Assembly: GCA_045657225.1 (NCBI GenBank)
Contig: JAZOSR010000035.1
Span: 20,953-84,952 of the forward strand
Direction: 5' to 3'
Length of the DNA: 64,000 nucleotides
Origin: Eubacteriales bacterium
Lineage (GTDB): Bacteria; Bacillota; Clostridia; Oscillospirales; CAG-272
Part shown: positions 11,799-36,762 of the stretch, piece after piece
Layout: every line of letters begins with the position of its first letter
Position numbering within the stretch: the first letter of the stretch is position 1
Made by a program: the position numbers and the translations under genes
Notes under the pieces: model-generated
The model's input: the letters and a program-made list of their open reading frames with translations, nothing else
Told to the model about the DNA's origin: nothing
Database searches by the model: none

Positions 11799-11813
11799 AT
11801 TTTGTAGATATTT
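11799..11813 (+). repeat. left copy of 15-bp direct repeat ATTTTGTAGATATTT (candidate attL / element end)
   Basis: Exact match to 26574-26588; continues cGCAAA vs tGCtAAA. Confidence 0.8.
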
Positions 11814-11841
11814 CGCAAATGTCAACCCCCTATTTTAGAAA

Positions 11842-12900
11842 TTAAGCAAATTTTTTTATGCCGAGGGTGGAGAGCTCGGCGTGGAAGCGTTCTCTTGCGG
11901 TGTCCCAATTAAAGAGCTGGCGGGGCATATCGTTAAGATAATCGCATGCCTCGGCTATCTCATTATCGCTATAATTGGCTATGGGAACGCCCTTTTTAAT
12001 GAAGCGGCGGAGGATCCTATTTTGGTTCTCGTTGCTCCCTCGTTCAGAACTGCAATACGGATGGCAATAAAAGACCGACGTGCGGACGGAATTACCTCTC
12101 CTCGATAATTCCATCCTGCGCCAGTCTGCAAACTCGCTGCCATTGTCACAAGTGATCGTCTTGAAGATCTTACGAAATTTAGTGATACCGAGCTGTTTTT
12201 CGAGCTTATCCAGGACGGCGACGGTGGAGGCGGCACTTTTATCCGTCGCACGAAAAACAAGCTCAAATCGCGTTTTTCGCTCCGTTAAGACCAACAACGT
12301 ATTACCGTGCCGTTTTGTGCCTATGACGCTATCAAGCTCCCAATGACCAAATTCCTCACGCTGCAGCACGTGCGGCGGACGCAGATCAATACAAGTACCG
12401 CGAGGTGGATTTTTTACCTTTTCCACCTTGCGGTATTTTCTTTTTCTCATGCCGCGGCAAACGAGATCCTTATTGGTGAGGCGGCGGAAATATCCCTTGT
12501 CGATATAGTGATAAAGCGTTGTGACACAGATCTGTGTTTTCACCGGGATCTGTTCACGTCTGATCGTTGCGAGAGCGACTGCCGGGGAGAGCTTGCGCTT
12601 AAGGATCAGCTCCTCGATCGTGCGGAGGGTATCGTGATCATTGCTGATCTTTGGCTGCGCTCCCCGGGCCTCTTTATTGAAATCTGCGTTTCTTTGTGCC
12701 AGATCTGCACTATATTTCTTTGTTTCGGTCCAATCATGATTACGATGCATGTAATAACCGCGTTTCAGCTCGTAATAGATTGCCGGATTAGAATAGCCGA
12801 GGATCTGTGAGATTTTTACGGCATTCAAATGAAGCACATTATACATGCGCTCGATCGTCTTTCTTACCTCATACGTCATTCGTTTGTAACCCATTGTCAA
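11842..12900 (-). CDS. IS30-family DDE transposase
   Basis: 352 aa; N-terminal HTH, then GHWELDSV (D), ITCDNGSEF (D), SERGSNENQNRILRRFIKKG (E) - the IS30 DDE spacing and motifs. Confidence 0.92.
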   Translation of the reverse strand: MTMGYKRMTYEVRKTIERMYNVLHLNAVKISQILGYSNPAIYYELKRGYYMHRNHDWTETKKYSADLAQRNADFNKEARGAQPKISNDHDTLRTIEELILKRKLSPAVALATIRREQIPVKTQICVTTLYHYIDKGYFRRLTNKDLVCRGMRKRKYRKVEKVKNPPRGTCIDLRPPHVLQREEFGHWELDSVIGTKRHGNTLLVLTERKTRFELVFRATDKSAASTVAVLDKLEKQLGITKFRKIFKTITCDNGSEFADWRRMELSRRGNSVRTSVFYCHPYCSSERGSNENQNRILRRFIKKGVPIANYSDNEIAEACDYLNDMPRQLFNWDTARERFHAELSTLGIKKFA

Positions 12901-13065
12901 GTGCTCCTTTCACCAAAAAGGCGGAAGGCGGTGGGGCGGCGCCGGCTAACCCGCCTTGGCGCGCGCCCCACACTCGCCATTCCGCCCACTCTTTTGTTTG
13001 AAATTCCTTTTGTCCCTGTAGCCAGACCCTTGACAATCGGGTGCTTTTGCGATCTCTCCCACAGA

Positions 13066-13197
13066 TGAAAATAAGCCCGAAAGGAGGTGATAAGATGGGA
13101 TACTTACGTATATGCAACTGGATCTGCACTCACAGCCAAATGATTGTTGATCTAATTGCAAAGATGCTCGTCATCTTATAAACCCTTACGGGCTTGT
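13066..13197 (-). ncRNA. candidate cis-antisense (antitoxin-like) RNA A; ends approximate
   Basis: Predicted start about 7 nt downstream of the antisense -10; would be fully complementary to the 28-codon ORF and its SD; a weak hairpin plus U-rich run (CCTTTCGGGCTTATTTT) lies opposite the SD region. Confidence 0.4.
13095..13181 (+). CDS. 28-aa peptide, candidate type I toxin (copy A): MGYLRICNWICTHSQMIVDLIAKMLVIL
   Basis: Strong SD AAGGAGGTGATAAG before ATG; same-length homologous ORF at 18009-18095 with several synonymous third-position differences; followed by a 9-bp-stem hairpin. Confidence 0.55.
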   Translation: MGYLRICNWICTHSQMIVDLIAKMLVIL

Positions 13198-13203
13198 GGG
13201 ATT

Positions 13204-13232
13204 ATTATATCACACAAGCCCCTTCTTGTCAA
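13204..13232 (-). promoter_or_regulatory. consensus antisense promoter TTGACA-17-TATAAT convergent on peptide ORF A
   Basis: Minus strand: TTGACA (13227-13232), 17-nt spacer, TATAAT (13204-13209); the -10 lies in the loop of the hairpin after the ORF stop. Conserved in copy B. Confidence 0.65.
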
Positions 13233-13649
13233 GCCTTGGGGTGGAAAACCTTATCCGCGGTTTTCCCCAACACCACACCGTGGTGTCGGTGCCCCTTTCC
13301 CTGCGAGGTGTTTCATAACGCTCTCGCAAACTCAAAAGTGGGGTATATAACGGTTTTTCTAACTTTTCTCTGACACGCGGGGAGAAAACTTAAAAAAGCC
13401 GTTACATCTTCCCGAGGTCTAAACGACCTCGTTTTGATTTTACTCACTCGTTATGTAGCTCCGCTATCAAGGAAGTGAAGGCAAGGCGCAAGCGCCTTAC
13501 TTTCACTTCCCATTTCCATTTTTGGGGAGGCGCCGTCTGCGGACGGCGGCGCGGAGTTGGTTGCCGCGTACGTTCATCAACAGCGACCGGGGGCGGCTGA
13601 ATACCCCCGGGGTTGCAAAGCCGAACAGCAACGAAGGCAGGTGGAAAGG

Positions 13650-13763
13650 ATGGAGAACGTGAGCTTAAGCGACAAGGCAATACAACGGCTGATCGAGTTT
13701 CTCTCACGTGCCGGGTGGACCGACGCACAGATCCTTGATCTGATCAATTACGTAACGAAATAA
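13650..13763 (+). CDS. hypothetical 37-aa protein (MENVSLSDKAIQRLIEFLSRAGWTDAQILDLINYVTK)
   Basis: SD AGGTGGAAAGG before ATG 13650; followed by hairpin CGAGGAG...CTCCTCG. The 68-aa ORF-track start lies in GC-rich hairpin DNA and is unlikely. Confidence 0.5.
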   Translation: MENVSLSDKAIQRLIEFLSRAGWTDAQILDLINYVTK

Positions 13764-13919
13764 AAAATACCCGAGGAGCCCTAACTCCTCGAGTATTCCA
13801 CATATTGCAGATGGGGTGCGAGCCTGCCCGCATCCTGTCTGCCAACCCTGTATGCACAGTATACCACAAACAAATCTATTTGTCAAGCCCCGGGTTTTCC
13901 CGGGCGGAAAGGAAGAAAA

Positions 13920-14102
13920 ATGACCTATCAAGACCTGATCAGCGCCGGCATTGAGATCCAATGCCAAACCGTACTTTACTACTACGACTATAACCGGGAT
14001 AAGCGCGTGCTGCTTTCGCCTGCAGATGCAGCCGGCAAAGAGATCAGATACATGTACGTGGAGGACGACGTGCTTTACATCGAAGTGGAGGTGGAGCTAT
14101 GA
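13920..14102 (+). CDS. hypothetical 60-aa protein
   Basis: SD GGAAAGGAAG; stop overlaps next start (ATGA). Confidence 0.6.
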   Translation: MTYQDLISAGIEIQCQTVLYYYDYNRDKRVLLSPADAAGKEIRYMYVEDDVLYIEVEVEL

Positions 14103-14392
14103 ACGAATTCAATTTCAGCGTATTGATGAAGAAATCGCAAAACTACACGCCGAGCAGCTTGATGCACACCTATGCGCAGCAGCACCCGAGCGCAAGCTTT
14201 TGCTATGATCTGAACGGCAAGCCCTATCTGCTCATTGCCAACGTTCGCTATTACTACAAGCATTGGCGCATAATCGCCGTGTCGCCGAACAGCGAGATGG
14301 TAACCGTCTATCTCAACGATCCCCACGCACTTGTGCCTATGCCGGGCACAGAAGGTAATTGGGGTGAAAGACATTGGGGAGGTTTGAAATGA
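14099..14392 (+). CDS. hypothetical 97-aa protein
   Basis: SD GGAGGTGGAG; ATGA overlaps at both ends. Confidence 0.65.
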   Translation: MNEFNFSVLMKKSQNYTPSSLMHTYAQQHPSASFCYDLNGKPYLLIANVRYYYKHWRIIAVSPNSEMVTVYLNDPHALVPMPGTEGNWGERHWGGLK

Positions 14393-14550
14393 TCGAATTA
14401 TGGGTAAATTATTGGAGCGGAGATTTTTTCGTAGGACATTTTCCAGATATTACATCAGCTCAAAAATATTTTGAAGATCACAAGGAACGTTTTAGAGATT
14501 ATAGAGGTGAAAAATTTGGTTTCCCATACGCTACTCCATTTTTGCGCTAA
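14389..14550 (+). CDS. hypothetical 53-aa protein (MIELWVNYWSGDFFVGHFPDITSAQKYFEDHKERFRDYRGEKFGFPYATPFLR)
   Basis: Below ORF-track cutoff; found by reading on from the ATGA overlap at 14389-14392; SD GGGGAGG upstream. Confidence 0.55.
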   Translation: MIELWVNYWSGDFFVGHFPDITSAQKYFEDHKERFRDYRGEKFGFPYATPFLR

Positions 14551-14649
14551 AACAAAACATAATAGGGGGCGGTTTAACCGTCCCCGCCACCTCAAGCCCT
14601 ACTCCCTACCACTACCACATAGGGTGCTCTGCACCCGGAAAGGATTTTT

Positions 14650-14910
14650 ATGACAGAAGCTACTTACTACACCATCATACTTGTTTGTGTATCTGCTTTT
14701 GCCATTTTACATGGCATTAACTGCTTTATTCAAAGTCGAAAATATTACCAACTCACCATAGATGGTGAAACATTTCAAGTAGTATTTAATTTAGATATAA
14801 GCCGGTGGAGCAAAACCGTTACTTTCACAGATCTAAATTACATAGAGCACACTATGACTTACAACAGAATTGAACTCTATGAGATTAAGCTAAAGGAGCA
14901 TGACCAATGA
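14650..14910 (+). CDS. hypothetical 86-aa membrane-anchored protein
   Basis: SD GAAAGGA; N-terminal hydrophobic segment YYTIILVCVSAFAILHGINCFI. Confidence 0.6.
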   Translation: MTEATYYTIILVCVSAFAILHGINCFIQSRKYYQLTIDGETFQVVFNLDISRWSKTVTFTDLNYIEHTMTYNRIELYEIKLKEHDQ

Positions 14911-15002
14911 AATACTTCCTCCGTGCGCTTGAGATCCTCGGGATCCTCTCCTTCTCGCTTTTTGTGGGCTATCTGCTCTTTCTGATGGTCTACATCGTGT
15001 GA
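14907..15002 (+). CDS. hypothetical 31-aa hydrophobic micro-protein (MKYFLRALEILGILSFSLFVGYLLFLMVYIV)
   Basis: ATGA overlap with the preceding ORF; single predicted TM helix; ends 9 nt before the NTPase ATG. Confidence 0.5.
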   Translation: MKYFLRALEILGILSFSLFVGYLLFLMVYIV

Positions 15003-15011
15003 GGTGCTGCC

Positions 15012-17177
15012 ATGCTCAAGAAGCTCAAGCAAATCAACTACCGTCATTTCATTGCCGCCGGGCTGGTGCTCGGCTCGGCGGCGCTATGTGTGTTCGTTTA
15101 CAAGTACCCTTTGGTGCGTTTGTGGGAAAGCATCATTGCCTTCATCCGCGCGATCGCGTATTCCTTCATGGATCTCCTCGAGCTCCCCGAGGCGCCCGAG
15201 ATCACCCAGACCGTCAACGACTTTTCTCGGGTAGACCTCACCGGTGCGATCGGCATTGACGTTGACGAGCTCTGGCGGCGGCTCTCCGGGGTATGGTCCG
15301 AGATCTTTGTGTGGGAGCATTTTCAATACTATCTGATCTTCCTCTTGTGGCACTTCACGCGCTTCATGTATTACAGCTGCATTATCCTCTTGATCGGCGT
15401 CGTTGCCATCATTCCCGTCGTGCTTACGTGGGACGATATCAACAACGACTACAACCAGGATACCGTGCCCCTTGTGCTATTCAAGCGCTTTGTGGCAGCA
15501 CCCTGCAGGCGCGTGTTCACGTGGCTTCGGGATCTCCTGGTGTTCTTCCGTAGCTCACGATATTGGAGCTGGTTCGTGTTCGTGTGGCTCCTGAACTTCG
15601 GCGTGTTCTCGGTGGCGATCTCGTTCCTTGCCTATTACTTTTGGGCGCTGACCGCCTTTGATCTCTCCACCTTCGGCGTGCAGCTCGTCAAGCTGGCGGC
15701 GGATCTCTTGCTTATGCTGAACACGTTGCCATGGTACGCCTGGGCGGTGATCTTCGCACTCTTGTGGGATCTGTGGCGCCACCGCATTGCCGACGATAAG
15801 ATGCAGCACATGGAAGCACAAAACAAAGGGATGCTGAGCGAGATGCCCATGTGTGCCTTCGTAACGGCTCCGCCGCGTACCGGCAAGACCACGCTGATCA
15901 CCTCCATGGCGATCTCCTACGCCGCCATGTTTCGCCACAATGCCCTCGAGCTCATGACCGGGAACATGCACAAATATCCGCGCTTCCCCTGGATCAACTT
16001 TGAGCTCGATCTCAAGGACGCGATCAGAGCGCACTTCGTTTACAACCTCTATACCGCAAGGGAATGGGTCCGCACGTGGTGTGCCGGCTTCCTTGAGGAT
16101 CCTTGCCGGCAACGGCTGTGGGATTACAACATAGACCTCTATCCGACGGAATACAACGATCACCTTACCGTCACGCCGATCTGGAGAGCACTCGAGAACT
16201 ACGCCCAGGAGTTTTTTATCTACTTCATGCAAACCTCTATCCTGGTGTCTGCCTACTCGATCCGCGAGGACTTTATCTTTATTGACGAGGGGAACTTCCC
16301 GATCGTTGACACCAACTTCTTTGCGCGTGATCCCGCTGCCATCGAGGAGGACAGCAGCTACGCGCACGTCATCGACTACGACATGCTGCGTCTTGGCAAA
16401 AAAATGCTGGAGGACAACCCCAATATAGGCGCCCTCGAATTCGGCGTCGTGCTGATCCCGGAGGTAGACAAGGAGCGCAAGAACGATCTGCGTTTGCGCG
16501 AGCTGAAGCTAAAGGACGACGTCTGCACCCAAAAGAACGACCTATTTAACGAATGGATGAAGATGGCGGGGCAATCTGCCATGGTGGAGAATTTCTGCTT
16601 TTTGCGTATTCTTTCGGATGCACAACGGCCATCCTCCTGGGGCGCGGATGCGCGCGAGCTTTCGATCGTCTTGCACATTGACAAGAAGGGCGACGCTGCC
16701 AACGCCTTGCCGCTCTTCTGGGTGGAGAACGGACTTGTCGGCAAATACCTCTCCTGGTGGGATAGTGTATACGTGAACAGTCGCTTCAAATGGGGCAATA
16801 ACCGTCTGATCACGTGGCTGGGCGAGGGGCTCGGCTCCTTCCTTTATAGCTACCTCCTGCGGCGCAACAACGACTACGGCTATTGGCGGCAGAAGATCCA
16901 GAGCGAGAGCGGAACCCTTGAGAAAGAAAACCTCGAAGAATACAGCTACACGATCGCACGCAAAAAGGACTACGCCGAGCGCTTTGCCTCCGACCATTTC
17001 AAGTCCTACTCACAAATCCAGACCGCCGAGTGTCACGTGGGCCTCGGTGATCTGCCCGCTTACAACTCAATCTATCCCACGTTTGACGAAATGATCATCC
17101 AAAATTCGCACTTCTGCCGGGAACTCATTCAATACTTTGATATCGTACCGGCAGAGGAGAAAGGAGAAAGCAAATGA
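15012..17177 (+). CDS. polytopic-membrane P-loop NTPase (N-terminal ~270-aa multi-TM domain + C-terminal Walker A/B domain); DNA-translocase/assembly ATPase candidate
   Basis: 721 aa; at least four long hydrophobic stretches in residues 13-255; Walker A APPRTGKT at residues 286-293 (nt 15867-15890); Walker-B-like VVLIPEVDKE; no confident family assignment. Confidence 0.8.
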   Translation: MLKKLKQINYRHFIAAGLVLGSAALCVFVYKYPLVRLWESIIAFIRAIAYSFMDLLELPEAPEITQTVNDFSRVDLTGAIGIDVDELWRRLSGVWSEIFVWEHFQYYLIFLLWHFTRFMYYSCIILLIGVVAIIPVVLTWDDINNDYNQDTVPLVLFKRFVAAPCRRVFTWLRDLLVFFRSSRYWSWFVFVWLLNFGVFSVAISFLAYYFWALTAFDLSTFGVQLVKLAADLLLMLNTLPWYAWAVIFALLWDLWRHRIADDKMQHMEAQNKGMLSEMPMCAFVTAPPRTGKTTLITSMAISYAAMFRHNALELMTGNMHKYPRFPWINFELDLKDAIRAHFVYNLYTAREWVRTWCAGFLEDPCRQRLWDYNIDLYPTEYNDHLTVTPIWRALENYAQEFFIYFMQTSILVSAYSIREDFIFIDEGNFPIVDTNFFARDPAAIEEDSSYAHVIDYDMLRLGKKMLEDNPNIGALEFGVVLIPEVDKERKNDLRLRELKLKDDVCTQKNDLFNEWMKMAGQSAMVENFCFLRILSDAQRPSSWGADARELSIVLHIDKKGDAANALPLFWVENGLVGKYLSWWDSVYVNSRFKWGNNRLITWLGEGLGSFLYSYLLRRNNDYGYWRQKIQSESGTLEKENLEEYSYTIARKKDYAERFASDHFKSYSQIQTAECHVGLGDLPAYNSIYPTFDEMIIQNSHFCRELIQYFDIVPAEEKGESK

Positions 17178-17335
17178 CACAGCACAGCACAGCACAGCAC
17201 AGCACAGCACAGCACACCCTCGAGCGTGACATAAAGGACTATTTCAAGCTGCAGGTCGATCGGGATCCCGACGAGCTCGATCTCACCGAGATCTCCAAAG
17301 ACGTGCTTGAGATTATCAGACGTCATATAAAGTAA
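17174..17335 (+). CDS. hypothetical 53-aa protein with (CACAG)7 repeat in codons 2-13
   Basis: ATGA overlap with NTPase stop; MTQHSTAQHSTAQHTLERDIKDYFKLQVDRDPDELDLTEISKDVLEIIRRHIK. Confidence 0.55.
   Translation: MTQHSTAQHSTAQHTLERDIKDYFKLQVDRDPDELDLTEISKDVLEIIRRHIK
17178..17212 (+). repeat. perfect pentanucleotide tandem repeat (CACAG)x7
   Basis: Counted base by base from 17178 to 17212, followed by CACAC. Confidence 0.95.
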
Positions 17336-17363
17336 TACAATTCAAACGTTTAAATTGTATTAC
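17332..17363. promoter_or_regulatory. 32-nt near-perfect palindrome GTAATACAATT-CAAACGTTTA-AATTGTATTAC (terminator and/or operator upstream of the RHH gene)
   Basis: 11-bp perfect arms; one mismatched pair in the centre; 20 nt before the RHH gene ATG. Confidence 0.6.
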
Positions 17364-17382
17364 ATCCTTGTGAGGAGCGATT

Positions 17383-17619
17383 ATGTATAAACAAAGAGAT
17401 AAGCTAATCAGTATACGCGTCAATAGCAAGCTGTTGGAGCAAGTGAAAAAGATCATCGATGCCAAAACCGAGGTCAGAGAAGGTTGGGGTGCTCGTAAAA
17501 TTTATTACTACCGCGACGAAAAACGTCCCTATGAATATGATAAATTCACCATTGCAGATCTTCTCGAAGAAGCCATGGAAAAATACCTCGAGGAACAAAC
17601 ACCTTCAGCGCAAAAGTAA
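17383..17619 (+). CDS. ribbon-helix-helix (CopG/Arc-like) DNA-binding protein
   Basis: 78 aa; SD GAGGAG; N-terminal KLISIRVNSKLLEQVKKII fits the RHH beta-strand plus helix pattern. Confidence 0.7.
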   Translation: MYKQRDKLISIRVNSKLLEQVKKIIDAKTEVREGWGARKIYYYRDEKRPYEYDKFTIADLLEEAMEKYLEEQTPSAQK

Positions 17620-17667
17620 TACACGGCGCCGGAAATGTAATACACGGCGCCGGAAATGTAATACATC
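17616..17667 (+). repeat. 21-nt tandem direct repeat GTAATACACGGCGCCGGAAAT x2 plus partial third copy (iterons)
   Basis: 17616-17636 and 17637-17657 identical; 17658-17667 GTAATACATC. Confidence 0.9.
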
Positions 17668-17731
17668 ATTCAACGTCTGACAACGTATCACATTTAACCA
17701 GGGTTTTTGTATTACTTTGTGCGATCGCCAT

Positions 17732-17773
17732 ATGTAATACATTGCTGTGAGATCTCACTGCAATGTATTACAT
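17732..17773. repeat. 42-nt near-perfect palindrome ATGTAATACATTGC-TGTGAGATCTCACT-GCAATGTATTACAT
   Basis: Only one mismatched pair; carries two more GTAATAC boxes in inverted orientation. Confidence 0.8.
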
Positions 17774-17974
17774 ACTTAAGCAAACAAAAACAGCCCTCGG
17801 GCATTGCCCGGGGGCTTTTCACACTTTTGTGCATTTTGTATATTCAGAAGATCTATTTTGCGCTCCGATCGCCACGCTGCAGCGCAAGTTTTCTGTGTAT
17901 CTTGCACAACTCTCCCCGGGCTCACCCTAACCTCGTATTCACCCACTTGACACTCACGGGCTTGCATAATCCCC

Positions 17975-18111
17975 GAAAAAGGAAACAAACCCGAAGGGAG
18001 GTGATAAGATGCTATACGTACGTATATACAATTGGGTCAACGCTCATTACCACACGATCCTTGACCTAATTGTAATGCTACTCGCACACTTATAACCCCC
18101 AACGGGCTTGT
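17975..18111 (-). ncRNA. candidate cis-antisense (antitoxin-like) RNA B; ends approximate
   Basis: Starts downstream of the antisense -10; CCCTTCGGG hairpin plus TTTGTTTCCTTTTT run opposite the SD region. Confidence 0.4.
18009..18095 (+). CDS. 28-aa peptide, candidate type I toxin (copy B): MLYVRIYNWVNAHYHTILDLIVMLLAHL
   Basis: SD AGGGAGGTGATAAG; same length and frame as copy A; synonymous differences (AAC/AAT, CAC/CAT, ATT/ATC, GAT/GAC) argue for coding constraint. Confidence 0.55.
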   Translation: MLYVRIYNWVNAHYHTILDLIVMLLAHL

Positions 18112-18117
18112 GTGGTT

Positions 18118-18146
18118 ATTATATCATACAAGCCCAATCCTGTCAA
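18118..18146 (-). promoter_or_regulatory. consensus antisense promoter TTGACA-17-TATAAT convergent on peptide ORF B
   Basis: Minus strand TTGACA (18141-18146), 17 nt, TATAAT (18118-18123); same position relative to the hairpin as in copy A. Confidence 0.65.
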
Positions 18147-18176
18147 GTCCTCACCGGGGAGAGAGCTTTCGATCTA

Positions 18177-18362
18177 TTGACAATTTTCCCCTTTTGTGAT
18201 ATCCTTTTATTGTCACACAATTTCATCACAATCACAGGGGAAACTATCTTTGGTAAAAAGTGTTCCTCTCTTTTTCTCATACCCTTGTGGTTGTGGAATT
18301 GTGTGACAACAATGAGTGGACCACTTTTTCGGTGTGCCTCTCGTTGGAGGCACACTTTTTTA
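18177..18362 (+). ncRNA. candidate ~150-nt small RNA (promoter TTGACA-17-TATCCT to strong intrinsic terminator)
   Basis: TTGACA 18177-18182, TATCCT 18200-18205; terminator GTGTGCCTC-loop-GAGGCACAC (18332-18355) plus T6ATTTT; no SD-preceded ORF inside; contains ATTGTCACACAAT / ATTGTGTGACAA inverted boxes. Confidence 0.45.
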
Positions 18363-18379
18363 TTTTCGACATTTTTCAC

Positions 18380-18408
18380 TTGCACGTGCGCCTGCTTTTC
18401 GCTAAAAT
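18380..18408 (+). promoter_or_regulatory. promoter TTGCAC-17-TAAAAT for the zinc-ribbon/nuclease gene
   Basis: Read from sequence; 28 nt upstream of ATG 18436 (SD GGAGG). Confidence 0.6.
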
Positions 18409-18435
18409 ATTTTTATAAATGCTTGGAGGTTTATT

Positions 18436-19176
18436 ATGGCTGACAAACTTATTTGCCCGATCTGTGGCGAACCAACACGAATCTACATGGGAAACGCACG
18501 CAAGGACCGTCTTTGCGGCAAACATGCCGACATGCTTAAGGCAGGTGATCTGATCCTCGGCGAGGACGGAAAATTCACCCTCAAGGATGCACCAAAGCCG
18601 GAGCTGAAGGAGAGAGCTGCGGCAGAACCGGCAGCTGCTTCTGATCTGACGTGCATTATCTGCGGCGAGCCGAGTAATGGGAAGCATTTTTGTGTGAAAT
18701 GTTATCACAAATACAAAAACAAAATCATTTATCTAAAGATAAAAGATTGCGTAGAATATGAACCACTCGGTTATGAATATGAAAGTGATTTAGTATGCGA
18801 AGATGGTCACATTGTAAAAAGTGAACCCGAACGAAACATTGACAATTGGCTTTTCAATCACGATATTAAACATATTTATGAGAGAACTTATCAAGTAAAC
18901 GAAACCGTGAAATTGCGTCCTGACTGGTGCTTACCGGGTTACATCAAAGATGAAGATGGACGCCCTGTTGATGTTTATGTTGAATATTGGGGAATCGAAG
19001 GCAGTGCAAAATATGAAAATATAAAGAATTATAAACTTCCTATTTACCAACAAGAAGGATTAACGCTAATAAACATCAACGCCGAACAAGACAAACGAGA
19101 TATAAGTGCAGCTCTTGATTGGAAAGTTTGGAACAAGAAAAATATCAAACCCTATCGAATCAATTTTCTTAAATAA
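18436..19176 (+). CDS. double zinc-ribbon protein with C-terminal PD-(D/E)xK-like nuclease domain
   Basis: 246 aa; CPICG...CGKH and CIICG...CVKCYH motifs; C-terminal SEPERNIDNWL...YERTY...RPDWCLP...VYVEYWG...Y...K...Y resembles the restriction-endonuclease-like module seen at the N-terminus of some UvrD/helicase IV-like proteins (from memory). Confidence 0.75.
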   Translation: MADKLICPICGEPTRIYMGNARKDRLCGKHADMLKAGDLILGEDGKFTLKDAPKPELKERAAAEPAAASDLTCIICGEPSNGKHFCVKCYHKYKNKIIYLKIKDCVEYEPLGYEYESDLVCEDGHIVKSEPERNIDNWLFNHDIKHIYERTYQVNETVKLRPDWCLPGYIKDEDGRPVDVYVEYWGIEGSAKYENIKNYKLPIYQQEGLTLININAEQDKRDISAALDWKVWNKKNIKPYRINFLK

Positions 19177-19180
19177 GACC

Positions 19181-19214
19181 AAGGAGCTCGCCCAACTGGG
19201 CGAGCTCCTTTTGT
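19181..19214. terminator. bidirectional terminator between convergent genes
   Basis: AAGGAGCTCGCCC-AACT-GGGCGAGCTCCTT 13-bp stem, T-rich after. Confidence 0.8.
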
Positions 19215-19415
19215 TCATCGGAATTTTCTTCCGGCATTTTTAATGCCGAGATAATCCGCTTGTCCTGCCTTAATATGTGTTCCAAAGTGACTTCTTAGCA
19301 TAGCTTCCGATTCTCCATATTGATGAGCAGCAATACCAACGCCAATCCAATATGCACGACGTTGATCCGCAGAATACCTTTTTTTACTTTTGTAATTTTT
19401 TCTTGCTTTTGCCAT
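19215..19415 (-). CDS. hypothetical basic 66-aa protein
   Basis: SD AAAAGGAG 8 nt upstream of ATG; no family recognised. Confidence 0.65.
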   Translation of the reverse strand: MAKARKNYKSKKRYSADQRRAYWIGVGIAAHQYGESEAMLRSHFGTHIKAGQADYLGIKNAGRKFR

Positions 19416-19446
19416 AATTTTTCTCCTTTTATTTTTTAAAATAGGG

Positions 19447-19548
19447 TTGACAAATACCCGACTTTCGGATATACTATTAATGAGCTTGATTCTTCAAGCG
19501 CCGACTTGTGTCGGATAGATGGGGGAGAAAATCCCCCTTTTTTATTTT
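19447..19548 (+). ncRNA. candidate ~65-nt small RNA, antisense to the junction of two minus-strand genes
   Basis: Consensus-like promoter TTGACA (19447-19452)-17-TATACT (19470-19475); terminator GGGGGA-GAAAA-TCCCCC (19521-19537) plus T6ATTTT; internal CCGA..TCGG hairpin. Confidence 0.55.
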
Positions 19549-19997
19549 CGCCCTTTCATAGTTCTTAATCTTTTTCGGTTTGATTTCCCGTTTTTTCCGG
19601 AAATCAAATCTTTTTTTATGTTATTAACGTCCTTGATGGACATTTCGCTTGAAACACCCTTTCTTACAAATTTATGCCCTAATTTAATAGGTGCATCAGA
19701 ATCATCTAAAGTAAGAACAACCGGTCTATATTTTGATTTTCCCGATTGATAATTAGGCAATGCTTTCCCAGAAGACGTTCCAAGTTTAACAAGTGCCAAT
19801 TCATCAAAACGATTGCTGTCAACTACAACCGTTTTGCGATAGTTACCTTTTCCTTCATATCCAGGCTTACGATAGTTTTTTTGCCCTTTAAAATATTCAT
19901 CACGAGTATGTATAATAGTGCCATTAGGAATATTTCTCGAAACATTACGTTTAGGTTTTCCCGGATAATTTGATTTTTTGTTTGCCGTAAATATCAC
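19542..19997 (-). CDS. hypothetical very basic 151-aa protein
   Basis: Open frame with GTG start (SD AAGGAG abuts the start codon, so the exact start is uncertain); Lys/Arg/Gly/Asn-rich; no family recognised. Confidence 0.6.
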   Translation of the reverse strand: MIFTANKKSNYPGKPKRNVSRNIPNGTIIHTRDEYFKGQKNYRKPGYEGKGNYRKTVVVDSNRFDELALVKLGTSSGKALPNYQSGKSKYRPVVLTLDDSDAPIKLGHKFVRKGVSSEMSIKDVNNIKKDLISGKNGKSNRKRLRTMKGRK

Positions 19998-20078
19998 TCC
20001 TTTTGTTCAACTTGCTCTATCAGAGTGCCGTAGCTGCAGCGCGATCGCGCCGAGCTGCGGCACTCTTTGTTTTAAGAA

Positions 20079-22025
20079 TTATTCATTCTTATTTTCATTA
20101 TGTTTTCGGCTCTCTTTGTCCGCTCGTCTATCTCGTCGTCGCTGGCGTACTGCTGAATTTGTTGCACTGCACAAACGAATCACAGGAGGTAAAAAGAAAA
20201 TTGCCAAGATAATCAAAGCAATAATCAACATTAAAAAAACGATTTTCTTAATTGCTCCTTTTAATGCATCCAAAATATCCTGCCATAAGGAACTAGGTGT
20301 TTTTCCTACCCCCAAATCACCAACTATATCATATACAATACCATCACCAAAGCTATTTACGGTATTACTGACGGTAGGAATGACCACAGTGCCTCTTTTA
20401 CTTGTAAAAGCGATATGAGCAATAGATACGTTCAGCATCGCGCTTTTTTCGATGCTGTAACCAACGATAGGTCCTATATAAACCTGATCCATTTCCCATA
20501 CATCCTGAAGCAGTGTACAGCGGTAATCCGCAATTGCATAACGCAAAATTACAACCACCTCATCATTCATTGCAGCTTCTGCACAAACTTTAGAAAAGGC
20601 ATCAAGATCACAAGCATTGATAAAAAGGTTTTTGCTATATTCTGCATATTCACTTTGTAAAATTACACTGTAACTAACCGGGTTCTCAATGACCTCTATT
20701 TTTTTGCACTCTTTTAAGAAATCCTCCGTTAAATAAACGTCTTTATCGCCAAAAAGTCTTTGCCAAAAATTCGGTTCATATTTTCCGTGCGACATTTCAT
20801 AGGTTTCCAAATTGAACAAATCCTTATCGGTATAATCAATATCTAAGTTTCTCCTATACTCTGTATAGAGTGCGGATGCGTCAATACCCTTTGCAACCTG
20901 ATCCTTATAAAGCTTCTCCAACTTCTCTGAAGTAAAAGCTGTCATTTGACTCAAATCGCCCAAATCAAAATCCTCGGGTATGGCGTTGCTTTCGATTAAG
21001 TAAGCCAAACGTTCATAAATAAGAGCGTTTCTATAATCATCAAAAATGTTTTCCTTATCCGTATAAATCCAATCGGCATAATGATATCCTCCACTAAGAG
21101 GAATTTCTTCTTTTATAAATTTATCACCCGCCACCAAATCCATTACGTCAGTATCCTCTGTAATTTTTTGACCGTTTTGAATCATATTACGTGTAACATC
21201 ATCAAAAACGCCTTCACGTGTCACGATAATCGGTGTCAGTTTTACAGAATCATAGCTCGCGCGAATGGAAGAAATATATCCGTATCGCTCCAAAACACTT
21301 TTTTTTACCTTAAAATAAACCGAATGGATTTCATAATGGTCATATTCATCGGAAAGATTACCGTCAACGGTTTTGCCGGCGTTCGGGCTCACCCACGTAG
21401 TATCGTACAGCTTAATTGGCAAAACCTCGCCGTCGCGCACCTCGCAATTCAAGCTTTTATCGAAATCATATCCCGTAAAGATATACATACGGGATATCAC
21501 AAACTCCTGAATCTCGCCCTCTTTTGAAAGAAAAATGCCGGGAATATTATACACACGCTCGCCGGGATTTTCATGCAGGCTCCAAAGCTGCTTTACCACG
21601 TTGCTACCATACGACGTTACCTTATATTTCAAAAAACGGTTATCATTGCTTTTTGAAGCCAACTCCAGACCGTAAAAGTTATATGCCGCTACCACCATAT
21701 TCAAACCAAACTCTACGTGATCATCCGGAGAATTTTCAAATTTAATGCAACCGGGATTATACAAGTAAATGTAAAAGCCGTAATTTGAAGAATTGGTAAT
21801 GCTTTTAAAGCCTACTTCGGCTACAAAAAGCACCTCCACGTCCGTACGCGATTGATCCACGGGATATTTACTTTGATCAAACGGTTCTCCGTTTATTTTT
21901 AGTTGCGCAAGCTCTTTCATTACCACGCTATCATCCGTTGCCGCATCGACGGCGGCTGATGCGCTCATACAAAACACACTCAGCAACGATAAAAGCGCCA
22001 ACATAAGCGCCAATATTTTTTCCAT
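20079..22025 (-). CDS. secreted protein with N-terminal signal peptide and C-terminal TM anchor plus Arg/Lys tail (adsorption/spike-like topology)
   Basis: Start moved to MEKILALMLALLSLLSVFCMSASA (SD AAAGGAGAAGGG). C-terminus IVFLMLIIALIILAIFFLPPVI then RQRRRDRRADKESRKHNENKNE. Confidence 0.8.
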   Translation of the reverse strand: MEKILALMLALLSLLSVFCMSASAAVDAATDDSVVMKELAQLKINGEPFDQSKYPVDQSRTDVEVLFVAEVGFKSITNSSNYGFYIYLYNPGCIKFENSPDDHVEFGLNMVVAAYNFYGLELASKSNDNRFLKYKVTSYGSNVVKQLWSLHENPGERVYNIPGIFLSKEGEIQEFVISRMYIFTGYDFDKSLNCEVRDGEVLPIKLYDTTWVSPNAGKTVDGNLSDEYDHYEIHSVYFKVKKSVLERYGYISSIRASYDSVKLTPIIVTREGVFDDVTRNMIQNGQKITEDTDVMDLVAGDKFIKEEIPLSGGYHYADWIYTDKENIFDDYRNALIYERLAYLIESNAIPEDFDLGDLSQMTAFTSEKLEKLYKDQVAKGIDASALYTEYRRNLDIDYTDKDLFNLETYEMSHGKYEPNFWQRLFGDKDVYLTEDFLKECKKIEVIENPVSYSVILQSEYAEYSKNLFINACDLDAFSKVCAEAAMNDEVVVILRYAIADYRCTLLQDVWEMDQVYIGPIVGYSIEKSAMLNVSIAHIAFTSKRGTVVIPTVSNTVNSFGDGIVYDIVGDLGVGKTPSSLWQDILDALKGAIKKIVFLMLIIALIILAIFFLPPVIRLCSATNSAVRQRRRDRRADKESRKHNENKNE

Positions 22026-22082
22026 CCCTTCTCCTTTCCACAAGAAGGCCTGCGACCTATCGTCGCACGCCTTCCCCTGTTC

Positions 22083-22568
22083 TTATTCAATTACCGTAAA
22101 GTAAATAAATTTTAACGCCGCGCTATTGAAGCTACCCGTATATTCCATCAGCACAATCGCATATCTACCGGGCGTAAACGTCGGATCGCCACTACCTTCA
22201 TAATTGCTTTCCATATGATCAAACACATTGGTTGCATTGCCGGAACCTGCCCCAAGCAACGTTTCACTCTCGCCATCGCGCAAAGCGCCAACACGCCAAT
22301 AAGCCATACGGTCGGTGAACTCTCCATCACGGTAAACCATTACACGATCAAGCGGATTGAACGTTGTTACGGTAACCAAAATTGGCTCTCCCTCTTTATA
22401 CACATCCTTACTGGTATAAATTGAACGTGTGCGAGGATTGGCCGACACGTTGATGATTGTGCCCTCATCCTTTTGTACGTTTTGCTGCTGCAGCATTTTA
22501 CCTGCCACTAACGTGCCGCCAAACGACAACAGAAGCACAAGAACACACAAGACTATGCGCTTCCACAT
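22083..22568 (-). CDS. hypothetical signal-anchored/secreted 161-aa protein
   Basis: N-terminal hydrophobic segment IVLCVLVLLLSFGGTLVAG; beta-rich remainder. Confidence 0.75.
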   Translation of the reverse strand: MWKRIVLCVLVLLLSFGGTLVAGKMLQQQNVQKDEGTIINVSANPRTRSIYTSKDVYKEGEPILVTVTTFNPLDRVMVYRDGEFTDRMAYWRVGALRDGESETLLGAGSGNATNVFDHMESNYEGSGDPTFTPGRYAIVLMEYTGSFNSAALKFIYFTVIE

Positions 22569-22571
22569 AAT

Positions 22572-23135
22572 TTACTTCCAGAACTCTACCAAGTCCTCAA
22601 CGGAAGTACCTACGCAGAGAATGGGCTTAATTTTGACGTTATTCAGGCTGCAATCCTCAGCAAGAACAAGCTCAAGCTTCACGGTGATATCCTCGACCAG
22701 CTCGTCGCCGGGAATCACAACCGTAGAATTGTAACAGCTCTTTACCTCAGCGTCATTGTTGACGTTCGTCAGCTTCAAATACGCGGTGCCCTTAGAACCG
22801 TTCATGCCGGAATTAAAAACGTATGAAGTACCCTTTTTCAGCGTATACGTACCAATCGGAATGCTCGTTGCTTCCTCAGCCGTGCCGCTTACCTTGATGA
22901 TATTATCATCATCAATCGATACGGTCACACCGTTCTCTCCACCGGAAAGCACGCCGTCATCATCTGCAAAATTCATTGCCTGATACAGGTTGTCCTCGTT
23001 TACCTCGCGCAGCTGCCACTCGGTAGGATCCATGTTTTGGAAACCCTTGGAAAGATTACCGATCAGGATCAGACCGGTACAGGCAACCAGGACGATTGCC
23101 ACCATCGTTGCGATCATTTTTCTTTTTGCTCTCAT
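22572..23135 (-). CDS. hypothetical signal-anchored/secreted 187-aa protein
   Basis: SD AAGGAG; N-terminal MIATMVAIVLVACTGLILIG; beta-rich remainder. Confidence 0.75.
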   Translation of the reverse strand: MRAKRKMIATMVAIVLVACTGLILIGNLSKGFQNMDPTEWQLREVNEDNLYQAMNFADDDGVLSGGENGVTVSIDDDNIIKVSGTAEEATSIPIGTYTLKKGTSYVFNSGMNGSKGTAYLKLTNVNNDAEVKSCYNSTVVIPGDELVEDITVKLELVLAEDCSLNNVKIKPILCVGTSVEDLVEFWK

Positions 23136-23261
23136 TTTTTGTTTTCTCCTTTTTTGTTAAAATTTGATTTTTTATACGCCCATCGGGCTACTTGAAACGC
23201 CGGGAAAATACTTGAATTTTTCGCCCTGCTTGCGGGCGGTGCATCATGTTCACCTTCCTTC

Positions 23262-23293
23262 AATGAAAAATGGGTGGGGACGTATCCCCACCC
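23262..23293 (-). terminator. intrinsic terminator after the 101-aa gene
   Basis: Minus strand GGGTGGGGA-TACG-TCCCCACCC followed by ATTTTTCATT. Confidence 0.7.
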
Positions 23294-23372
23294 AAGTTCA
23301 ATGCGCTGTGGGGCAGCGCTATTGACAGATCAGATACACAACCGCCCCCACTGCAATTGTGCTTTTCGGATA

Positions 23373-23678
23373 TCACGCCGACTTTACGGGCTCGATCTTG
23401 ATATCCATCTTTGCCTTGCCGATCACACGAACCTCGCAAAGCGTGGCAACCGTACGGGTGCCGAACTGCTCGATCAGATACTCGAAATCACAGTAATCGC
23501 CGATCATGATATTGGAAATATCAAAACGGACGAAAACCGCTTCCACCTTCTGACCCTGCTCGCCGTCTGCCTGCTGCGCGGGCTTGTCCCAAAGCACGTG
23601 CAACGTGCGTGACATCTTTTGCTCGCCGTCCTTTTCGTAAGAACGCTCCTGCTTGCCTACAATAATCCCTTTTCTCAT
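23373..23678 (-). CDS. hypothetical 101-aa protein
   Basis: SD AAGAGGT; no family recognised (a single-stranded-DNA-binding role would fit the context but is unsupported). Confidence 0.7.
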   Translation of the reverse strand: MRKGIIVGKQERSYEKDGEQKMSRTLHVLWDKPAQQADGEQGQKVEAVFVRFDISNIMIGDYCDFEYLIEQFGTRTVATLCEVRVIGKAKMDIKIEPVKSA

Positions 23679-23718
23679 TTTCTTTACCTCTTTTCTTTAT
23701 GTATTTTTTTAGGGAATA

Positions 23719-25149
23719 CTAAAATGAATTATCGACACACTCAAAACAAGCAATTTTCGAACCATCACGAAAGTAAGCTCTAATCACAAAAATTTCCGTG
23801 CCGTTTATTACAGCGTCAGGCGCAATTAATTCACCATTCTCGTAACGAAATGTTGTACCATTTTCCAGAAGAACTTTATAGTAAAGCAAAACATCAAAAC
23901 GATTTCCGCCATTATCATAAATTTCATCAGTAAGCGTATTCATTACGACAAACCGTACCGCAACATTTAAACGCTGCCCAGGTATCATCACAGTAAACGG
24001 ACGATCAAGAAGCTCTTGATTAGATACTATATCTACAATTTGATGCTTGTATATTAATCGCTTGTTAAGTAACGATTCCAAGACACTTTCATCTGCATTT
24101 TCATAACCGTTAAAAATGCCTGCAGTAATATTTGCACTGACCATTAAAGCCCTATTGCATTCATCCAAAGCAATTTCACTATAGGAATTGCCACTTATTG
24201 TACTACCTGTATATAATGCCTTAGAACAAACATACGCATAAGAGGAAGCGTATGTCAAAAAGCTTTCTCCATACGGAACAAAAGCATATTGACGAACGGA
24301 TTTTTCCCCAAATTCCGCATAAGGAATTGCAACTATCACACGATTCGTATTTAACATTTTAATTCGTATCAAATAAGTGCGAAGCAACATTTCATTTAAG
24401 CCTTGTTCTTCACTGCAATTTAAGATCTCGTAATTACGACCTAATGTTAACTCTTCATTTTTAGAAAACTCCACAACCCAATCGACCACGGCAGTCATCG
24501 AACTTATTTTTTGCACCTCATCAATAGGAGCCAATAACATCTTAAACACACCACCTGCAGATACTACGTTTTGATAAAAAGTAGTATCTACATGCGCCAG
24601 AAATTTAATGCCGCCGTATTCTCCCATAGAAGCTTCGTTATAAGCAAATTCAGACGGCATCAAATAAAAGTCATTACTTGTATATGGCACAACATCCTTA
24701 TCCGCTGTAGGCGAAGAAATAGGATTAACCTTTATTTTACAGTTGGCTTCCATACCATCATAACGAAGTGTAACAATAGCCTCTCCGACTCCCACACCTT
24801 TTACGATAAAACCGTTTGCAACAGGACCGGATTCACCAATCGTTATATTTTGTTCAACAAAAACTATATCAGAGGCAGAAGATTCATATTCCCAAGGTAA
24901 TGTAACGTCCTTATGCGTCAGTTGAACGTCTATCAACCAGCTCTCTCCCAAAGTCAATTGCTTTTCCGTAGTTTGAATGACAAGCTTCGAATTAATGCTT
25001 ACCGAGCCCTGCAAATCCACAACAGAATTCTCCCGATGCATCATATATTCTTTAAGACTTTGAATCAAATTAACGGCTAAAATAATCAAAAAAACAAGTA
25101 AAACAGCCGTTACTAACAAAACAACAATTTTTTTTCGCTTTGCACTCAT
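23719..25149 (-). CDS. membrane-anchored protein with Ig-like (Big_2-type) domain
   Basis: Start set to MSAKRKKIVVLLVTAVLLVFLIILAV, whose ATG overlaps the Rep stop (ATGA). Segment DIVFVEQNITIGESGPVANGFIVKGVGVGEAIVTLRYDGMEANCKIKV resembles bacterial Ig-like group 2 domains. Confidence 0.8.
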   Translation of the reverse strand: MSAKRKKIVVLLVTAVLLVFLIILAVNLIQSLKEYMMHRENSVVDLQGSVSINSKLVIQTTEKQLTLGESWLIDVQLTHKDVTLPWEYESSASDIVFVEQNITIGESGPVANGFIVKGVGVGEAIVTLRYDGMEANCKIKVNPISSPTADKDVVPYTSNDFYLMPSEFAYNEASMGEYGGIKFLAHVDTTFYQNVVSAGGVFKMLLAPIDEVQKISSMTAVVDWVVEFSKNEELTLGRNYEILNCSEEQGLNEMLLRTYLIRIKMLNTNRVIVAIPYAEFGEKSVRQYAFVPYGESFLTYASSYAYVCSKALYTGSTISGNSYSEIALDECNRALMVSANITAGIFNGYENADESVLESLLNKRLIYKHQIVDIVSNQELLDRPFTVMIPGQRLNVAVRFVVMNTLTDEIYDNGGNRFDVLLYYKVLLENGTTFRYENGELIAPDAVINGTEIFVIRAYFRDGSKIACFECVDNSF

Positions 25150-26414: not shown

Positions 26415-26573
26415 TTTTCGCGGTACCCCCTACGACAGTGTTTTGAAGATCTGTACCCCCCTGTTAGCGGGGGGGCACCGCCCGCCCTCCGCCGCGCTTC
26501 GCGCGGCTTCGAGCGGGCATTTTTCGCCTCTCATTCGCTCCTTTGACTTTCTAAAATAGATTTTAACATTCAA

Positions 26574-26588
26574 ATTTTGTAGATATTT
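26574..26588 (+). repeat. right copy of 15-bp direct repeat ATTTTGTAGATATTT (candidate attR / element end)
   Basis: Exact match to 11799-11813. Confidence 0.8.
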
Positions 26589-36455: not shown

Positions 36456-36465
36456 GCTGGCCTCC

Positions 36466-36498
36466 AAAAGAAAAAACGGGGGACAAAATCAGTCCCCC
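36466..36498 (-). terminator. Rho-independent terminator after the Asn/Gln-rich micro-ORF
   Basis: Minus strand GGGGGAC-TGATTTT-GTCCCCC followed by GTTTTTTCTTTT. Confidence 0.8.
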
Positions 36499-36511
36499 GC
36501 CGCCGATTGGA

Positions 36512-36682
36512 TTAATAATCCTTCTTTTGCTGGTTCTGATTTTTGTTCTGATTGTTGTTTTGATTATTGTTCTGATTTTGGTTGTTCTGGTTGTTCTGGT
36601 TGTTTTGGTTGTTATTCTGATTATTGTTCTGATTGTTGTTCTGGTTCTTGTTGTAGTTTTGGTTCTGATTTTGGTTCTGCAT
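36512..36682 (-). CDS. 56-aa Asn/Gln-rich micro-protein (31 N + 17 Q)
   Basis: Hand translation of the minus strand: MQNQNQNQNYNKNQNNNQNNNQNNNQNNQNNQNNQNQNNNQNNNQNKNQNQQKKDY; SD AAGGGAG 8 nt upstream; own terminator; same strand as all neighbours. Below the ORF-track size cutoff. Confidence 0.6.
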   Translation of the reverse strand: MQNQNQNQNYNKNQNNNQNNNQNNNQNNQNNQNNQNQNNNQNNNQNKNQNQQKKDY

Positions 36683-36762
36683 GATACACACTCCCTTTTA
36701 GCATTGCCCTGCCTTTTGCTGTGCAAGGCTGATGTTAGTATGCGTCAAGCAAAATAAAGTAT

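Follow-up and report, generated by a model that had tools for sequence, protein, structure and literature searches.

The window, a stretch of 64,000 nucleotides from a Eubacteriales bacterium (contig JAZOSR010000035.1), contains an integrated element of 14.76 kb and, within it, a small gene for a 78-amino-acid, ribbon-helix-helix (RHH)-like DNA-binding protein that is flanked by eight copies of the box GTAATAC. Our favoured reading, to which we give a probability of about 0.6, is that the boxes are the recognition sites of the 78-amino-acid protein and that gene and boxes would form a self-contained cassette acting locally as an autoregulator or roadblock. Directly observed are the clustering and conservation of the boxes, their linkage to the gene, their co-variation with its protein, their independence of the rolling-circle initiator (Rep) of the element and the presence of a nick hairpin elsewhere. 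From these observations we infer that the protein is of the RHH type, that it binds the boxes and what the outcome of binding would be. The cassette consists of the following features.

17313..17341, plus strand: weak sigma-70-like promoter candidate (TTATCA-17-TACAAT, 9 of 12 positions; consensus match only)
17330..17365, no strand: upstream palindrome with box 1 (17332-17338, plus) and box 2 (17357-17363, minus)
17383..17619, plus strand: gene for the 78-amino-acid RHH-like DNA-binding protein
17614..17667, plus strand: boxes 3-5 in direct orientation, 21-nt tandem repeat
17708..17717, minus strand: box 6, inverted
17731..17774, no strand: near-perfect 44-nt palindrome with box 7 (17734-17740, plus) and box 8 (17765-17771, minus)
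about 17790..17820, plus strand: terminator-like hairpin and T-run closing the cassette, read from sequence

A first-pass annotation had reported GTAATAC or its complement at 17332, 17357, 17616, 17637, 17658, 17709, 17734 and 17765, and all eight boxes were recovered at these positions. GTAATAC occurs 15 times in the 64-kb window compared with 3.6 ± 1.95 times in 100 dinucleotide-preserving shuffles, none of which reached 15, and eight of the 15 copies fall within 442 bp, where about 0.05 would be expected from the density of the other seven over 63.6 kb. The 10-mer AWGTAATACA fits all eight boxes without mismatch and has no further exact copy in the 64 kb. The box is asymmetric: 40 boxes from eight loci, oriented by their central A, yield AAAWGTAATACA, with an A-rich 5′ flank and an unconserved 3′ flank. 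Its core TGTAWTACA is a 9-bp pseudo-palindrome, the whole site nonetheless having polarity.

The arrangement of the boxes largely agrees with the earlier description. The 32-nt palindrome at 17332-17363 is real (16-nt arms, 94% complementary), lies 18 nt 5′ of the start codon of the 78-amino-acid gene and extends over the −10 and start of the candidate promoter; box 1 overlaps both this −10 and the stop codon of an upstream open reading frame (ORF) of 53 amino acids. Equally real is the tandem repeat at the stop codon of the gene (17616-17667), where a 21-nt unit (17609/17616-17667) carries three box copies at a spacing of 21 nt and box 3, the first downstream box, overlaps the stop codon itself. 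The lone inverted box at 17709 was found as well. The second palindrome, given as 42 nt at 17732-17773, exists but actually extends from 17731 to 17774, with 22-nt arms, one mismatch and 95% complementarity. The core of this palindrome, TGTGAGATCTCACTGCAA, has a homologue in the upstream array of a related locus (L011; related loci carry L numbers throughout), the spacer CGGCGCC is seen again in L004, L005, L007, L011 and L012, and the terminal box of the window array has the conserved tail TGTATTACATACTTAAG. The hairpin and T-run at 17790-17820, which are kept in L005 and L007, were missed by a terminator scan because the T-run is shorter than the scan rule requires.

Searches with the 78-amino-acid protein found 14 homologues, all from gut metagenomes or metagenome-assembled genomes (MAGs), and for most of these the contigs were retrieved. 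A box cluster is present in all loci having DNA past the stop codon of the homologue (L003-L007 and L011-L014, homologues 69-83% identical) and starts between −3 and +24 nt relative to that codon. Seven downstream boxes each were counted in L003, L012 and L013, four in L004 and at least three in L014; L005 and L006 have three boxes plus one variant each, L007 has three and one more upstream, and L011 combines three upstream with at least two downstream. Upstream boxes are also found in L008 and L009 and are absent in L003, L004, L005 and L012-15. The relatives have 3-9 boxes per locus directly flanking the gene, the window having eight. The cluster follows every homologue in varied gene orders: in L003 and L012-15 the cassette lies 3′ of the gene for a large ATPase (721 amino acids in the window), the end of which coincides with the start of the small gene; in L004 it lies 5′ of the ATPase gene, with the array between the two genes; and in L007 and L011 it has other neighbours. 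Box number, spacing and spacer sequence differ between loci, and the boxes outlast the spacers. In the alignable arrays, 3 of 40 box columns are variable compared with 27 of 82 spacer columns (P = 0.0017), and between L003 and L012 the figures are 0 of 56 and 16 of 97 (P = 0.0006).

Box and protein also change together. Two distant homologues, P0013 and P0014 (41% identical, without an insertion that the window protein has), have 3-5 copies of TGTATATACA on either side of the gene instead of the window-type box, written TGTAATACA; the TGTATATACA palindrome retains the TGTA/TACA half-sites around a centre with one extra base. Residues R5, K7, S10 and R12 of the predicted strand do not vary, P0013 and P0014 included. 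L008 and L009 are the loci of the TGTATATACA type, and the sole other gene there encodes a 278-amino-acid protein without relative in the window. As a side observation, the L008 contig opens with a palindrome of about 75 nt (L008 1-80), and the 278-amino-acid gene 3′ of the array has a winged-helix-like N-terminus; L008 may be a replicon of a different type using the same cassette.

Where the gene is missing, the boxes are missing too. L002 encodes a Rep (68% identical), a transposase (76%) and an ATPase (49%) related to those of the window and has neither a homologue of the small gene nor a box cluster, and no such cluster was found in any of the ATPase-module elements without the 78-amino-acid gene (L001, L002, L138, L016 and L017). 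Since the boxes track the small gene and are absent in elements that lack it, they belong to this gene and not to the Rep, transposase or ATPase genes. The first-pass annotation had left it open whether the array was the RHH operator set, the binding and nick region of Rep, or both, and had suggested following the box through homologous elements; the comparison supports the operator half of this proposal and not the Rep half.

The collection of loci could not be extended. An exact-sequence look-up of the window protein returned no record, IMG/VR, searched with the alignment and three distant members as queries, gave no further loci of the small gene (an alignment of 69 family sequences was too diverse to serve as scan query), and neither a protein scan of the Joint Genome Institute metagenomes nor BLAST searches (blastn, tblastn) of GenBank phages and PLSDB plasmids produced a match. 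Scanning DNA for the pattern GTAATACA-N(9-23)-GTAATACA, in which GTAATACA is the box stretch, retrieved 120 loci, all of them unrelated and lacking a homologue of the small gene.

Across loci, the array keeps an unusual arrangement that begins on the stop codon and in which a 12-nt box alternates with short variable palindromes. The final downstream box TGTATTACAT(C/A)CTTAAG is followed by the ribosome-binding site of the next gene in L003, L004, L008 and L009, and by a terminator-like hairpin in the window, L005, L007 and L012. The spacers hold short palindromes of unrelated sequence (CGGCGCCG, GCGATCGC, TGTGAGATCTCAC, CGACGTCG, CAACGTTG and ACGGCCG; window 17616-17775 and the arrays of L003, L004, L007, L011, L012 and L014), whatever the orientation of the flanking boxes, and their self-complementarity of 104 compares with 79.6 ± 3.9 in shuffles, with 0 of 2000 reaching 104. 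Palindromes of 6 bp are about twofold enriched in the array, with only eight sites, which are too few to count. The spacer palindromes may represent weak, secondary dimer sites halfway between boxes, to which the cooperative filament formed by CopG would be a parallel, or hairpins in single-stranded DNA or RNA.

The 78-amino-acid protein is probably an RHH protein, forming a dimer. Its predicted layout comprises the strand KLISIRV, helix A, an insertion of ~20 residues and helix B (TIADLLEEAMEKYL), and the alternating KLISIRV, helix A and S/T-capped helix B make up a sequence pattern compatible with the RHH fold. At 50% identity the family falls into 76 clusters, and no curated model detects it; its pattern is M-x-RDK-x-IS-x-RV-(N/D)-S-x-LL, helix A, ~20 inserted residues including a conserved Tyr, and K-x-(S/T)-x-ADLLE-x-A. 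Among 69 members the recurrent Pfam signals, all sub-threshold, come from RHH-type models only (RHH_1 in six members, best E = 0.0009; RHH_3 in four; CopG_antitoxin in three), and CcdA, NikA-like, VapB and Antitox_RHH matched one member each, also below threshold. The window protein itself matches RHH_3 at E = 0.13 (residues 57-71), RHH_1 at E = 0.34 (residues 9-26) and an Arc-like PHROG at E = 0.0048, all below threshold, and the insertion-free P0013 matches RHH_1 over positions 2-39 of 39 with 15.7 bits (cut-off 20.5). Compared with CopG by hhalign, neither the 14- nor the 69-sequence family alignment produced a match. As an RHH protein it would bind its repeated, pseudo-palindromic sites through the beta-ribbon, for which the linkage and co-variation of box and protein are indirect support. 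A toxin-antitoxin reading of the gene was rejected, as there is no toxin gene 3′ of it.

A reading of the array as replication origin depends on the Rep protein and on where it would nick, and two features bear on this.

25146..26414, minus strand: gene (rep) for a Rep_trans and Rol_Rep_N initiator/relaxase (PF02486, E = 5e-30; Rol_Rep_N, E = 2e-8)
26454..26477, plus strand: MOBT/Rep_trans-type nick hairpin TACCCCCCTGTTAGCGGGGGGGCA, directly upstream of rep

MOBT relaxases are Rep_trans proteins that also initiate rolling-circle replication at oriT (PMC6499999, PMC5714925), and published oriT cores of this class are ACCCCCCCACGCTAACAGGGGGGT of ICEBs1 (as reverse complement) and ACCCCCCTATTAGTATCGGGGGG of TnSmu1 (PMC10233336). 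The window hairpin at 26454-26477 matches both (PMC10233336); its MOBT-type core ACCCCCCTGTTAGCGGGGGG is located at 26455-26474, outside the array, and the hairpin is identical in L002 and L003, the Reps of which are 68% and 66% identical to that of the window. The MobT model itself matches the window Rep weakly, with 53 bits against a cut-off of 600. On the 3′ side of the hairpin follows a GC-rich palindrome (~26480-26518, region to 26530), the sequence of which varies per element while its symmetry is kept, a layout that resembles a conserved nick hairpin plus specificity repeat. By homology, the hairpin is the candidate for the nick site and true origin of the element. It lies 9 kb from the box array and, as far as homology shows, within 26.4-26.6 kb, one of two intervals that the first-pass annotation had named as nick positions at odds with an origin at the boxes (the other being 13.2-13.6 kb).

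An origin at the boxes had been suggested by direct repeats adjoining a large palindrome in an element with a rolling-circle Rep, which would make the array a pMV158- or pT181-like double-strand origin, composed of a nick hairpin and the Rep-binding iterons of the Rep_trans protein. The oriT core directly 5′ of rep argues against this, as does the distance of 7.4 kb between rep and the array. So does the co-occurrence of boxes and Rep, which fails in both directions: in L002 an equally related Rep occurs without a cluster, in L003 a Rep of 66% identity occurs with seven boxes, and L008 and L009 have boxes and no Rep_trans protein on the contig. Because of L002, and because the boxes co-vary with the small protein, the array is not linked to Rep. 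It also has no conserved loop or nick motif, the palindrome loops being GATC, CA and AACGTT at different loci. Replication or transfer of the element thus most likely does not originate at the array, and we regard the double-strand origin as very improbable.

How the cassette could work under the autoregulator or roadblock reading can be outlined from the positions of the boxes. One dimer would occupy each 9-bp pseudo-palindrome TGTAWTACA, with polarity set by the A-rich flank, and several dimers would join in a single nucleoprotein complex that spans ~160 bp on the 3′ side of the gene. In the window, a second pair of sites on the promoter and leader of the gene would also be occupied. Autorepression through the upstream palindrome 17332-17363 is implied because this box pair covers the −10 and start of the weak promoter candidate. 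The downstream array would block transcription crossing it, which in the relatives would be transcription toward the next gene and in the window either read-through or antisense transcription from a strong leftward promoter at 18146. A local operator or roadblock fits the position of the final box before either the ribosome-binding site of the next gene or a terminator-like hairpin. No boxes are found near other promoters of the element, for which reason the protein would act locally and not as a global regulator.

Several observations weigh against this reading. The upstream operators are missing where the end of the ATPase gene is the start of the small gene (L003, L012-15), no convincing or consistent sigma-70 promoter was found inside the downstream arrays at any locus, and in four architectures a terminator comes after the array, leaving nothing obvious downstream to regulate. 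One dimer per box leaves the short spacer palindromes unaccounted for, and the centre-to-centre spacings of the boxes (17, 21, 24-27, 31, 40 and 48-52 bp) are out of helical phase, the phasing being approximate in the window and not seen in L003. As to the protein, all family matches in Pfam stay under the gathering scores, a PDB profile search with the family gave chance matches only, and the AlphaFold2 monomer (mean pLDDT 68) has its N-terminus modelled as helical and yields zero Foldseek hits in the PDB at E < 1; an uninformative monomer model is to be expected because the RHH fold exists only as an intertwined dimer. Finally, binding of the protein to the boxes is predicted from linkage and co-variation, and the co-variation, which comes from one distant lineage (L008, L009), could mirror common descent of the module.

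The main rival of the repressor is a centromere- or adaptor-type cis site, at which the protein would link the excised circle either to a motor for segregation or to the 721-amino-acid ATPase as a packaging or transfer signal, gene regulation being merely a by-product. An array 3′ of the gene for the binding protein and often closed by a terminator is better suited to a cis-acting site than to an operator, and 3-8 iterated sites are reminiscent of plasmid centromeres, as in parC of pSK41 and R1, the omega sites of pSM19035 and sopC of F. Iterated sites adjoining the gene of their binding protein, as in partition systems, are indeed found here; the small gene moreover adjoins the ATPase gene in four architectures, end-to-start in L003 and L012-15, and other promoters carry no boxes. 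However, no ORF of the element has a ParA- or ParM-type domain and the ATPase is without recognizable relative. The cassette is also absent in L001, L002, L138, L016 and L017, which share the same ATPase, adhesin-like gene and p187 module, and can therefore not be an essential packaging or transfer signal of the family. In L008 and L009 it stands beside a different gene, with no ATPase on the 1.6-2.2 kb available. We consider such a cis site unlikely. A bolder version, which we hold to be distinctly unlikely, would see in the protein-coated array a portable DNA-recognition tag presenting the excised circle to the 721-amino-acid membrane P-loop ATPase. If true, this ATPase would be a new export, assembly or transfer motor of widespread 10-15 kb elements of gut Clostridia, which use Rep proteins of the MobT type or the filamentous-phage type, and the cassette, instead of being a plain repressor, would serve optionally to enhance packaging or transfer, or would determine incompatibility or immunity.

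It is improbable, in our view, that the palindromes function as single-stranded DNA or RNA hairpins with the box as conserved stem base, be it as single-strand origin, as packaging hairpin of a filamentous-phage-like element or as RNA processing or terminator structure. The array at 17600-17790 does fold strongly as single-stranded DNA (−44 kcal/mol, z = −8.2 compared with shuffles), inverted box pairs enclose fully palindromic, unrelated spacers in the window (twice), L003 and L007, the self-complementarity of the spacers exceeds that of all 2000 shuffles, and a single-stranded stage exists in Rep_trans replication or transfer. Yet many boxes are direct repeats and unable to pair (17616/17637/17658; three of four in L004; L011), and in L012 and L014, close relatives of L003, the long L003 palindrome has decayed and the boxes are intact. 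Loops are unconserved, nothing equivalent to the array is present in elements that lack the small gene, and Rfam gave no match on the array.

The cassette resides in an element for which ends, content and relatives could be defined; its remaining features are listed here.

11814..26573, no strand: integrated element carrying the cassette, 14.76 kb
11842..12900, minus strand: IS30-family transposase gene
15012..17177, plus strand: gene for the 721-amino-acid protein with an N-terminal helical membrane domain (~280 amino acids) and a P-loop NTPase domain
17174..17335, plus strand: 53-amino-acid ORF with (CACAG)8 at its 5′ end, its start overlapping the ATPase stop codon

Around the element, the window is chromosomal DNA of Clostridia type: thrC and other genes lie to the left, tig-clpP-clpX occupy the right side from 26637, and the insertion point is ~30 bp ahead of the tig promoter. 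The 15-bp direct repeat ATTTTGTAGATATTT (11799-11813 and 26574-26588) flanks the element, which ends in imperfect terminal inverted repeats. L002, a Clostridia MAG from roe-deer caecum, shares this layout, bounded by 19-bp repeats of its own, and L003, a 9.8-kb metagenome contig, contains the element ends joined in a circular form (L003 4259-4419), from which it follows that the transposase belongs to the element. The element comprises a plus-strand operon ending in the 721-amino-acid ATPase, the 53-amino-acid ORF and the 78-amino-acid gene, and further encodes a zinc-ribbon protein and a minus-strand block of secreted or membrane proteins that ends in the Rep_trans protein. A split into two tandem elements at a 176-nt repeat was rejected, as both halves are contiguous in L001 and L002.

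The ATPase has its Walker A motif (APPRTGKT) at residues 286-293. More than 216 relatives were found in gut metagenomes, none of them annotated, and hardly any belong to virus or plasmid collections, only two being in IMG/VR and one in GenBank phage records. Searches of Pfam, PHROGs and the PDB gave no relative, and the structure model has no significant PDB neighbour, TcpA being matched by Foldseek at E = 6.3 only. Neither a TcpA-type coupling protein nor VirB4 or other conjugation proteins were hit by the element ORFs in Pfam, PHROGs and NCBIfam. The ATPase family is accompanied by an IS30-type integrase and by either a Rep_trans or a REP_ORF2-G2P Rep; L138, for example, has the same ATPase, adhesin-like and p187 genes together with a REP_ORF2-G2P Rep of the filamentous-phage type. 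Homologues of the 53-amino-acid ORF adjoin the cassette in L011 and L007 and lie 3′ of the array in L003; that of L011 has 115 amino acids and a Lar-like zinc ribbon (PHROG 6422, E = 4e-6). The pentanucleotide repeat (CACAG)n is found at 17178-17216 and at L003 9790-9841, and a change in copy number would shift the frame, making the ORF a candidate for phase variation.

Some further observations concern other parts of the stretch. The 176-nt direct repeat (13058-13233 and 17972-18147, 76% identical) has homologues in L003, L007 and L138. Each copy contains a ribosome-binding site with a conserved 28-amino-acid ORF (13095-13181; 18009-18095) and, on the opposite strand, a perfect consensus promoter TTGACA-17-TGnTATAAT (13232 to 13204; 18146 to 18118) firing across the ORF. 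The repeat may be a type I toxin-antitoxin-like pair, or alternatively the first copy may be the promoter and leader of the transposase gene. A non-coding stretch of ~400 nt with GC-rich hairpins (13226-13650), conserved with L003 5870-6250, ends at the ribosome-binding site of a conserved 37-amino-acid ORF (start 13652) and may be a single-strand origin or a non-coding RNA. At 36250-36700, six copies of the 8-mers CAGAACAA / AATCAGAA cluster over 400 bp inside a long host ORF; they are unrelated to the boxes and probably represent a coding tandem repeat.

Taken alone, a small RHH-like protein with iterated sites is ordinary mobile-element biology. The 78-amino-acid family with two natural box types differing by one central base pair, however, offers a clean and cheap system for RHH-DNA specificity, and the cassette provides a handle on a larger, unrecognized family of elements marked by a membrane ATPase of ~720 amino acids. 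With the origin placed at 26454-26477 and its ends defined, the element is experimentally tractable.

By its IS30-type transposase and its MobT-like Rep with a MOBT oriT, the host element is reminiscent of ICE6013, a MOBT element of the Tn916 superfamily that combines an IS30-type DDE transposase with a MobT relaxase (PMC6499999, PMC7563843). As in MOBT elements such as ICE6013 and ICEBs1, a Rep_trans/MobT-like protein and an oriT-type hairpin of the form ACCCCCC...GGGGGG directly 5′ of its gene are present, and with ICE6013 the element shares an IS30-family transposase as integration enzyme. The host element differs from both in having no detectable conjugation protein and in that some relatives sharing its ATPase module carry a REP_ORF2-G2P Rep. 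Certain plectroviruses (Tubulavirales) also carry a transposase (PMC8295915). With Tubulavirales the host element has in common a size of 10-15 kb, a rolling-circle Rep, one large membrane ATPase, a transposase for integration, a large secreted protein with a C-terminal anchor and many very small ORFs, as well as the G2P-type Rep of L138; in contrast, its ATPase matches neither the Zot/pI models nor any phage family, and no coat protein was identified.

For the cassette itself, the pMV158 layout invoked in the first-pass annotation turned out to be a poor model. In pMV158, copG is co-transcribed with repB, and CopG represses the common promoter at a single 13-bp pseudo-palindromic element. A small RHH-like protein, a pseudo-palindromic operator and an element with a rolling-circle initiator are shared with the window. 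However, the Rep of pMV158 belongs to the Rep_2 family and that of the window to Rep_trans, and instead of one site beside repB the window has eight, around a gene that is 7.5 kb from rep, on the opposite strand and not co-transcribed with it. ParR/parC of pSK41 and R1 and ParG/parH of TP228 employ RHH centromere-binding proteins with sites upstream of the operon that are also autoregulatory. Common features are an RHH or RHH-like gene that closes an operon behind an NTPase gene, 4-10 iterated sites at a period of ~20 bp and autoregulation by the same sites, which for the cassette is a prediction; in contrast to them, its array lies downstream of the gene and not upstream of the operon, its neighbour is a 721-amino-acid membrane protein and not ParM or ParA, and no sequence similarity to them was detected. 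The third comparison is with omega of pSM19035, an RHH dimer that binds a 7-bp asymmetric box, WATCACW, in direct and inverted arrays with one dimer per box; these arrays serve both autoregulation and as centromere-like sites. The omega heptads are contiguous, lie upstream of the copS, delta and omega promoters and are served by a protein with a ParA partner (delta), whereas the boxes of the cassette are 17-52 bp apart with variable spacers, flank their own gene, mostly downstream of it, and have no detectable ParA partner. What the cassette shares with omega is a small RHH or RHH-like protein and a short asymmetric box, repeated in direct and inverted arrays.

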